Virus record (IMG/VR): IMGVR_UViG_2718217789_000012
Origin: a virus
Lineage: Duplodnaviria > Heunggongvirae > Uroviricota > Caudoviricetes
Length of the DNA stretch: 9,269 nucleotides
Strand: one strand, 5' to 3'
Under the pieces are notes generated by a model, which saw only the letters and a program-made list of their open reading frames with translations, was not told the DNA's origin and made no database searches. This document shows, in pieces, positions 7,247 through 8,049 of this stretch (the stretch's first letter is position 1; each line of letters begins with the position of its first letter). A program made the translations under genes and the position numbers.

Positions 7247-7279
7247 GTGTGATATCACACTACCAGCACGTGATATCAC
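7247..7279. promoter_or_regulatory. Two palindromic sites sharing the core GTGATATCAC (GTGTGATATCACAC at 7247-7260 and GTGATATCAC at 7270-7279), centres 21 bp apart; putative operator
   Basis: Both are perfect palindromes read directly from the sequence. The spacing is two helical turns. The second overlaps the stop codon of the 257-aa ORF. They lie between that ORF and the terminator/alpA start. Confidence 0.4.
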
Positions 7280-8049
7280 TTTTTACGTTTTTGTTGAGAT
7301 TCACGCCCCAAATACTTTTGCCATGTCTGCCAATGTGTTTTTGGAAATTCTATCCCTCTGGATGCAGCTATAGAATCAATTAAATCTGCTATTTTAGGTA
7401 ATGATTCCGTGTCCAGGTCTACATCACCCATTTCTGGAATAAGTTTAATTAAAGAGTAAATAACCTCATTCCTTTTTGACGATGCTTTTGGGCTATCTTC
7501 TGTTATCTTCGGGAAGTCTCCCGTATTTTTTATATTATCTAAATCACTAGCCATCACACACAAATAGTTAACATCAAATTCATAACCACCCTTACAAAAA
7601 ACATACATGAGATTATCATCACCATACTTATTCGTAAGATGAGAACATTTTATATATTGTCTCATGCTAAATTCGACATCAGCAAAAACATATGCCGGAG
7701 TATAATAAAACCCTGATAAGCTGCTAACATAATAACATTTGATAGAATTCCCTACAGGACCAATAATGGCACTATCTAAAAATTCAGTGTCACCAGTTAA
7801 ACCAACTGTAAAATTACTTCCAAAAACAGCAGATTCATCATTGAAAGGATATTTTATTAATTCTTCCTCATTACAACCATTGATAAAATGACATAATGAA
7901 AAATTGAATTTTTTAGCATCAATTTTTGGTATATATACAGAAATATTAAGAGCACCTATATATGCGTAATGATAAAGATCTTTTATTGCACAGCCTAACT
8001 TTTCTGCCGCTTCAGGTAACGGATAATAGAGTCTTTTAGGTAATTTCAT
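7276..8049 (-). CDS. Hypothetical 257-aa protein, AT-rich cargo gene translationally coupled to int; N-terminal excisionase/AlpA-like HTH-like segment, remainder unassigned
   Basis: The start ATG overlaps the int stop in an ATGA arrangement (plus-strand tcat at 8046-8049). The ORF is uninterrupted for 774 bp. Its DNA is visibly much more AT-rich than the flanking int and alpA (estimated about one-third GC versus about one-half). Residues LPEAAEKLGCAIKDLYHYAYIGAL resemble an excisionase-type helix-turn-helix; the basic C-terminus ends QQKRKK. I recognise no family for the remaining ~200 aa. Confidence 0.7.
   Translation of the reverse strand: MKLPKRLYYPLPEAAEKLGCAIKDLYHYAYIGALNISVYIPKIDAKKFNFSLCHFINGCNEEELIKYPFNDESAVFGSNFTVGLTGDTEFLDSAIIGPVGNSIKCYYVSSLSGFYYTPAYVFADVEFSMRQYIKCSHLTNKYGDDNLMYVFCKGGYEFDVNYLCVMASDLDNIKNTGDFPKITEDSPKASSKRNEVIYSLIKLIPEMGDVDLDTESLPKIADLIDSIAASRGIEFPKTHWQTWQKYLGRESQQKRKK

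Follow-up and report, generated by a model that had tools for sequence, protein, structure and literature searches.

A hypervariable three-domain protein encoded between integrase and alpA is a candidate regulator of alpA in a phage satellite of Escherichia coli

Located between the integrase gene (int) and alpA of a phage satellite, a gene of 257 codons, here termed X (7276-8049, minus strand), is tentatively proposed to encode a signal-sensing DNA-binding transcription factor for alpA, which would resemble Stl in function. The gene is found on a 9,269-nucleotide stretch of viral DNA (IMG/VR record IMGVR_UViG_2718217789_000012; Caudoviricetes), referred to as the window. Its carrier, recognised here from its genes, is a satellite of about 9 kb that belongs to the PICI (phage-inducible chromosomal island) type. 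AlpA has been described as the master activator of Gram-negative PICIs, whose global repressor was called 'unclear' and in which the helper phage turns on alpA by an unknown route (PMC6092414); in a later survey the 'integration zone' consists of int plus alpA only (PMC10111431). X is a concrete and easily testable candidate for a helper-sensing alpA switch in one PICI lineage, which is carried by Shiga-toxin-producing Escherichia coli (O157:H7, O145:H28, O103:H2), Salmonella and Klebsiella. An earlier note on this DNA had singled out the gene as possible accessory or defence cargo; its interest lies more probably in a possible role as the satellite's regulatory switch.

The open reading frame (ORF) and its overlap with the integrase stop, both pointed out in the earlier note, were confirmed: X starts with ATG, the int/X junction reads AAG GTG GCC AAA TGA, with ATG AAA TTA offset by one base, and ATGA is common to the int stop and the start codon of X. 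The Shine-Dalgarno sequence of X (AAGGTGG) sits within the final integrase codons, and all integrases overlapping X have C-termini of the form ...LKV[AK]K or similar. By translational coupling, X would be made alongside the integrase in the quiescent integrated state. With a GC content of 0.323 (0.21 at third codon positions) X is indeed AT-rich compared with int (0.484), alpA (0.462) and the window (0.462). However, every X homologue lies 10-16 GC points under its flanks, in E. coli as well as in Klebsiella, Salmonella and Providencia. Low GC is thus a property of the X family and, contrary to the earlier note, cannot be read as a sign of recent acquisition by this element.

An AlphaFold model calculated with the family alignment as input (mean predicted local distance difference test score 77.9) divides X into three domains (Table 1). 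Residues 1-48 fold into a winged helix, in agreement with the excisionase-like N-terminus suggested in the earlier note, and resemble Xis/RdfS/AlpA-type excisionases and the N-terminus of TniQ. This part holds the best-conserved motif of the family, with R6, Y8, L11, A14, A15, K17, C20, D24 and H27 near-invariant. The beta-rich middle domain is hypervariable, G113, F114, E126 and L163 being its only invariant residues, and was matched to no known fold. A disordered linker (residues 177-186) leads to the four helices of the basic C-terminus, the candidate operator-binding domain. In the profile and structure searches that the earlier note had called for, only residues 1-48 resemble a known fold, and two of the three domains are without one.

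Nor could X be placed by sequence, in line with the earlier note. Scans of X, its isolated domains and 97 relatives against Pfam, NCBIfam, PHROGs and PADLOC found no family, and such marginal hits as X had fall within residues 1-48; in Pfam, X had no match at E<=0.1 and the isolated N-terminus none at E<=10, and two of the 97 relatives matched HTH_17 weakly (E~1e-3, under the gathering score). Relatedness of the X N-terminus to the neighbouring AlpA was not detected at profile level (hhalign against an AlpA alignment, probability 0.06), and a profile sequence search of the PDB gave no match. The scans detected no enzymatic, pore or nucleotide-binding effector domain. In PADLOC-DB v2 the only match is mad1, a marginal hit to the winged helix-turn-helix (residues 8-34; E 0.015, 13.6 bits), and tblastn of X against 50,697 phage genomes yielded no match. 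The gene was correctly regarded as undescribed, since no description was found in a literature search on the accession and on any described int-alpA gene.

Clustered at 90% identity, the homologues of X form 19 groups; at 50% identity, about 390 representatives reach E<=1e-3, of which 98 reach E<=1e-10. A second word-indexed search with the 97-sequence alignment added just two more proteins. Homologues with names come from Enterobacterales only (Escherichia, Salmonella, Klebsiella, Raoultella, Cronobacter, Pluralibacter, Dickeya, Pectobacterium and Providencia) and are annotated as 'hypothetical' throughout. GTDB genomes, searched for related loci, returned nothing usable. Hidden Markov models of the three domains, run over all collected loci, match X genes alone, one per locus, and nothing in loci without X.

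Genomic context gave the firmest result: the position of X between int and alpA is exclusive. Genomic context was compared in 13 family members with 99% down to about 20% identity, originating from Escherichia, Klebsiella, Salmonella, Providencia, Pectobacterium, Pluralibacter and metagenomes. All 13 lie immediately downstream of a tyrosine integrase, and in 12 the next gene is an AlpA/HTH_17 gene, the contig of the 13th stopping earlier. X and alpA are 55-130 bp apart, and the overlap of int and X in the closer members amounts to 4 or 8 nt, while a gap of 93-160 bp is found in the distant ones. Beyond alpA the elements vary, with either a primase or a RepA-type replication gene, and with or without capsid-forming functions (portal, protease). 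In seven related E. coli PICIs lacking X, by contrast, the int-alpA interval is a non-coding spacer of about 365-470 bp (7/7). In this small sample (7 islands without X, 13 with it) the slot is either empty or occupied by the X family, and never by other genes. The comparison of the interval proposed in the earlier note therefore revealed variation in presence and absence but no other occupants, and the view of the interval as a slot for diverse cargo did not hold here.

The window integrase shares 91% identity with that of a PICI which lacks X and occupies the same site, cspD/yljB-clpS, and 75-78% identity with the integrases of other X-less islands, but just 53-69% with other X-linked integrases; the presence of X is patchy with respect to integrase phylogeny. 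The element with the most closely related integrase lacks the cassette carrying X, which is thus open to gain or loss, and X is optional for PICIs. At an rcnB-adjacent site in Salmonella and E. coli, one X allele (P0005) with its integrase precedes three different sets of downstream modules (L009, L010 and L011), which comprise Rha or T5orf172 genes after alpA and either an AAA_25 RepA-type gene or a D5 primase, indicating that the int-X-alpA block re-assorts as a unit. In Pectobacterium brasiliense (L014/L015) the island seemingly comprises no more than int, alpA with the gene of a 294-aa X homologue between them, and a single small ORF, beyond which ordinary chromosomal genes begin. It represents a minimal remnant or, alternatively, a minimal element keeping exactly this module. 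In a Providencia rettgeri assembly (GCA_001680125.1) two large contigs (L012 and L013) carry the same 250-aa X within near-identical chromosomal flanks together with different primase genes, which could reflect a duplicated region, two strains in the assembly or an assembly artefact.

The boundaries of the X cassette were defined by blastn against the 91% relative. Homology stops at 8067, 21 nt before the int stop, and restarts at 7152, at about codon 11 of alpA. Where the relative, the nearest X-less PICI, has a 472-bp non-coding spacer, the window has 914 bp comprising the integrase tail with the ribosome-binding site of X (the final ~21 nt of int, 8046-8066), X itself, a spacer of 91 bp and the alpA start, of which the first ~10 codons differ from those of the relative. 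The cassette has replaced the region upstream of alpA and is not a mere insertion. This replacement of a control region argues that X and the spacer have assumed its function, namely the control of alpA.

Within X, variation is distributed as a sharply bounded mosaic. In three elements at one Salmonella/E. coli site, the integrase DNA is 95-100% identical but X codons 1-190 are just 35-75% identical; the C-terminal 70 codons, together with ~25 bp past the stop, then form a block of 97-100% identity, and alpA is 75-98% identical. Between the window and one of these elements, int is 71% identical, the 5' part of X cannot be aligned, the 3' block is ~98% and alpA ~88% identical. The mosaic boundary coincides with the disordered linker, and one 3' block is common to at least seven different 5' parts. 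Hypervariable codons 1-190 beside a near-identical 3' block form the pattern expected of specificity or immunity determinants.

The relation of X to int bears on one alternative, in which X is an integrase accessory, i.e. an enlarged recombination directionality or architectural protein whose winged helix binds att-arm DNA or Int and which stabilises integration or gates excision pending AlpA. The overlap of the two genes with the Shine-Dalgarno sequence inside int, the adjoining tyrosine integrase in 13/13 members and an N-terminus that is excisionase-like and at the same time the most conserved part of the family are consistent with such a function. However, the X alleles next to integrases of 95-100% identity differ widely, and the same site is occupied without X by an integrase of 91% identity, which argues against an obligate Int partner. 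Moreover, a hypervariable middle domain is unexpected in an architectural factor, 93-160 bp separate X from int in distant members, and the conserved palindromes described below are situated at alpA, not at the ends of the element. An accessory role is therefore considered distinctly unlikely.

At the stop codon of X two exact copies of GTGATATCAC, a perfect 10-bp palindrome, are found, against 0.18 expected in the window. This candidate operator pair between X and alpA co-occurs with X and varies with its C-terminus. Loci of E. coli, Salmonella, Providencia and metagenomes retain the pair in this position, with centres 21-22 bp apart and spacers of 11-12 bp that are unrelated in sequence; in Klebsiella it has degenerated, and none of the X-less PICIs examined has it. 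A pattern search of IMG/VR recovered more satellites, each with the pair directly after the X stop. Distant X proteins with diverged C-termini have other palindromes downstream, e.g. TTCCATTAAGaCTTAATGGAA in Pectobacterium, and two loci with Int 86% and AlpA 72% identical (L017 and L018) differ both in the X C-terminus and in the possession of GTGATATCAC. Alleles with an altered N-terminal 'recognition' helix, including a K-to-E exchange, retain the same palindromes. Since the palindromes track the C-terminus of X and not the N-terminal helix, the C-terminal domain is indicated as the binding part, although physical linkage could equally yield the correlation between C-terminus and palindromes.

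Further palindromes were observed elsewhere. P. brasiliense L014/L015 displays a 21-bp perfect palindrome, TTCCATTAAGACTTAATGGAA, between X and alpA, and in P. rettgeri L012 a third GTGATATCAC site is located near the replication gene (~12897). The operator pair was also considered as a marker of helper phages and rejected: about 47 phage-sized IMG/VR contigs with TGATATCA arrays were treated as unrelated on account of their AT-richness, their ribosome-binding sites of Firmicutes-like type and the lack of any encoded X domain. In these contigs of 35-60 kb (L033, L036-L042, L045-L051, L053-L056 and others), which encode no X homologue, arrays of the form TGATATCA(C/T) place five to seven palindromes in one intergenic region near promoter-like sequence, and are presumably the operators of an unrelated phage repressor recognising the same 10-bp palindrome.

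The two palindromes can also fold as a stable RNA hairpin directly after the X stop, which would suit a different reading: X would act on the helper, as an anti-repressor or interference protein binding a helper regulator or structural protein, and the palindromes would be an mRNA 3' stem-loop or the terminator of an int-X transcript. The acidic, variable domain lends itself to the binding of proteins, and helper-directed proteins are common in satellites such as P4 and the Staphylococcus aureus pathogenicity islands (SaPIs), with P4 Epsilon providing a comparable logic. However, each arm is palindromic in itself and remains so as complementarity between the arms decays, a property that an RNA stem does not need. 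In Klebsiella, arm 1 (GTGAATTCAC) is still self-palindromic although the inter-arm complementarity is lost, which speaks for an operator bound by protein rather than for an RNA stem. The reading also leaves the replacement of the alpA upstream region and the basic terminal domains of X unexplained, and is regarded as very improbable.

A putative alpA promoter is represented by the -10-like hexamer TAGAAT, which begins 23 nt past palindrome 2 and would place the palindrome centres near -40.5 and -61.5. A (T/C/A)AnAAT hexamer is present at equal distance in most other X-bearing loci, although it is weak in some. No recognisable -35 was found at this site, and for this reason a consensus promoter scan makes no call at TAGAAT. 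Besides a repressor, a signal-dependent activator would be compatible with the operator geometry and with the lack of a -35.

Between this hexamer and the alpA start codon lies a hairpin with the alpA Shine-Dalgarno sequence (AGGA) in its 3' arm and two CGTTCG repeats, 10 bp apart, in its loop. A hairpin upstream of alpA was noted in L003/L004 as well. Folding of the 121-nt region gave a z of -4.7, and compensatory changes were found at 7 of the 10 pairs across loci and genera. The hairpin was considered as part of the X system and rejected, because an equivalent is present in X-less PICIs too; it belongs to alpA. A transcript from the putative promoter would lack its 5' arm, while read-through from int-X would include it, and the hairpin may shield alpA translation on such read-through transcripts. 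In the window it also resembles an intrinsic terminator by virtue of its T7 tail, a T-run that is not conserved elsewhere. CGAACA/GTTCG motifs with ~10-bp spacing occur upstream of alpA irrespective of X (window 7200-7211; spacers of L002-L005), in X-less spacers as arrays of 4-6 copies, and their orientation flips by lineage, with GTTCG in the E. coli window and GAAC in Klebsiella and Providencia. These repeats are likely sites for AlpA or for integrase-arm binding; the recognition helix of AlpA, almost invariant across all loci, more plausibly matches them than the X palindromes.

The hypervariability of X leads to a further alternative, which the earlier note had favoured: X could be a stand-alone anti-phage or superinfection-exclusion protein, expressed constitutively with the integrase, whose variable domain recognises a phage and triggers abortive infection or blocks a step of the phage cycle. 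An AT-rich gene that is hypervariable between conserved flanks, patchy with respect to integrase phylogeny, in part without known fold and probably expressed together with the integrase from one operon while the satellite is in its prophage-like state fits this picture. PICIs have been reported to hold immune systems at their 5' or 3' ends (PMC11364771), and another E. coli PICI confers an unexplained superinfection immunity with no known system (PMC11773190). Overall, the earlier note's reading of X as variable cargo or defence was borne out only in part. Evidence for defence as such was not found, since the PADLOC match is limited to the marginal winged-helix hit, no effector domain was detected and no phage homologue was found. 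In addition, the slot is no hotspot in the sample, two-sided synteny down to ~20% identity is unusual for cargo, and a defence function leaves without explanation both this strict synteny and the removal of the normal alpA upstream region by the cassette, and gives the conserved operators at the stop codon no role. Defence is accordingly held to be unlikely, though less so than the accessory and helper-directed readings. If it were right, X would be a new defence protein that is encoded by a single gene and has an unknown fold in two of its domains.

Regulation of alpA accommodates these features. Three features together, namely strict synteny, a replaced alpA upstream region and conserved operators, point to X as a regulatory part of the int-alpA module. 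In the mechanism proposed, the basic C-terminal helical domain would bind both GTGATATCAC palindromes at the X stop as a dimer or tetramer, and the hypervariable N-terminal two-thirds, chiefly the acidic beta domain, would receive a signal, most plausibly a helper-phage protein. This signal would toggle X from a state in which alpA is held off to one in which alpA is allowed to fire. For inactivation by a specific helper-phage protein, the hypervariability of codons 1-190 between near-identical flanks is indirect evidence. The more specific proposition, that X represents a fold-novel family of satellite 'gatekeepers' coupling the detection of a helper protein to alpA transcription via operators at their own stop codon, is possible and is put forward with still greater reserve than the assignment as a regulator. 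If true, it would supply the missing link between helper infection and induction for one Gram-negative PICI lineage, in which helper specificity would change by cassette exchange. Whether X is a regulator or a defence protein, ~390 clusters of 'hypothetical' proteins would gain a function, and the swapping of X alleles would offer a natural experiment on specificity.

PICIs are recognised by int, alpA, a primase/replication gene and a packaging gene, mostly in one direction, over ~10-15 kb at a specific chromosomal site between core genes. The carrier shows such features: int, alpA, a D5_N/DUF5906 primase, a DUF4222 protein, a small terminase and a capsid-family protein, all encoded on the minus strand and assigned by Pfam (Table 1). 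An identical 9.3-kb segment is located between cspD/yljB and clpS in complete E. coli genomes, including strains of the three serotypes named above. Window bases 1-106 are core chromosome, present in 5425/5426 E. coli genomes. Of 5,426 genomes searched with a 916-bp query spanning X and its flanks (7185-8100), 66 gave at least a partial match, and in 47 most of the query was matched at >=99%; the matches are chromosomal in all cases. The packaging module (861-2570) is small, with portal, protease and large terminase absent within the window, and related PICIs at the same site (L002, L028) encode a different major capsid protein and a head-decoration protein. A gene of the YlcI/YnfO family (6607-6825) is the sole annotated gene on the plus strand and faces an Icd-like cell-division-inhibitor gene; this divergent pair, alongside which window positions 6252-6301 were noted, recurs in most related PICIs (L002, L003, L027, L028). 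An overlapping ORF of 232 aa (6252-6950, minus strand) has no RefSeq annotation and is probably spurious. A search with Rfam found no known RNA in the window.

Table 1. Positions of X, its domains, associated sequence elements and other annotated genes in the window
Feature	Position	Strand	Basis and remarks
Gene X, 257 aa, uncharacterised, three-domain	7276..8049	-	RefSeq WP_000775337.1, 'hypothetical protein'
X residues 1-48, winged helix of excisionase/MerR fold, basic, pI 9.3	7906..8049	-	AlphaFold model
X residues 49-176, beta-rich middle domain, acidic, pI 4.35, hypervariable	7522..7905	-	Model and alignment
X residues 187-257, four helices, basic, pI 9.4, ends ...PKTHWQTWQKYLGRESQQKRKK	7279..7491	-	Model; candidate operator-binding domain
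X cassette, 914 bp	7153..8066	-	blastn breakpoints against nearest X-less PICI
Operator-like palindrome 1, GTGATATCAC	7270..7279	.	Sequence conservation; overlaps TGA stop of X
Operator-like palindrome 2, GTGATATCAC	7249..7258	.	Sequence conservation; 11 bp past palindrome 1, 21 bp centre to centre
-10-like hexamer TAGAAT, putative alpA promoter	7220..7225	-	Read by eye
Hairpin CGTCCTCG-12 nt-CGAGGACG + T7, abuts alpA ATG	7185..7219 (stem-loop 7192-7219)	-	Folding and covariation
alpA, 74 aa, Phage_AlpA	6960..7184	-	Pfam, E 3.4e-16
int, tyrosine integrase, 407 aa, Arm-DNA-bind_3 + Phage_integrase	8046..9269	-	Pfam
D5-type primase	3595-5349	-	Pfam
Small terminase	1947-2570	-	Pfam
Capsid-family protein, 307 aa	861-1784	-	Pfam Phage_capsid, E 1.3e-6
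DUF4222 protein		-	Pfam

Comparison with known systems places X close to several of them. With AlpA, Xis and RdfS (Phage_AlpA, PF05930; HTH_17, PF12728) and the N-domains of MerR proteins, a class of ~50-70 residues, X shares the winged-helix fold of residues 1-48. However, X has no significant match to the models of these families, its 'recognition' helix reads C-x3-D-x2-H whereas that of AlpA is R/T-rich, and with two extra domains it is three to four times larger than the small single-domain excisionases. Moreover, a genuine alpA adjoins X.

Two proteins encoded in the same interval were considered as relatives and rejected. YfjH of CP4-57, located between intA and alpA of E. coli K-12, has 318 aa and lies on the opposite strand, and its alignment with X by hhalign reached a probability of 0.3% (E 0.19). 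EcCIMP1_002, in the same slot of another PICI, was taken as unrelated on the basis of the size given by its authors, only about a tenth of UvrB.

Like X, the occupants of defence hotspots in P4-like satellites and PICIs (Rousset 2022, PMC9122126; Tai, PMC11364771) are satellite-borne, AT-rich, rapidly diversifying and expressed when integrated; such hotspots, however, hold many unrelated systems per place, whereas the X slot holds nothing or X. The immunity regions of lambdoid phages resemble X in combining a sharply bounded divergent segment between near-identical flanks with a regulator and short palindromic operators. In contrast to these regions, the operators and the presumed DNA-binding C-terminus of X are part of the conserved flank and the presumed sensing part alone varies, and X has no homology to CI or Cro.

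The closest functional parallel may be Stl/Rpr of SaPIs and Gram-positive PICIs. X belongs to a family unrelated to Stl and CI-like repressors, and such chains are not among its PDB fold or sequence matches. Nevertheless, Stl/Rpr, like X, is a multi-domain protein that combines a DNA-binding end, a presumed one in X, with a part of high divergence, which in Stl binds the inducer proteins of the helper phage (PMC6092414). The genes initiating the satellite cycle follow immediately downstream of both, and the alleles of both differ strongly between otherwise similar islands. The arrangement by which Stl/Rpr is recognised, beside int, co-directional and upstream of the induction genes, is also that of X, which follows int in all 13 members and precedes alpA in 12.

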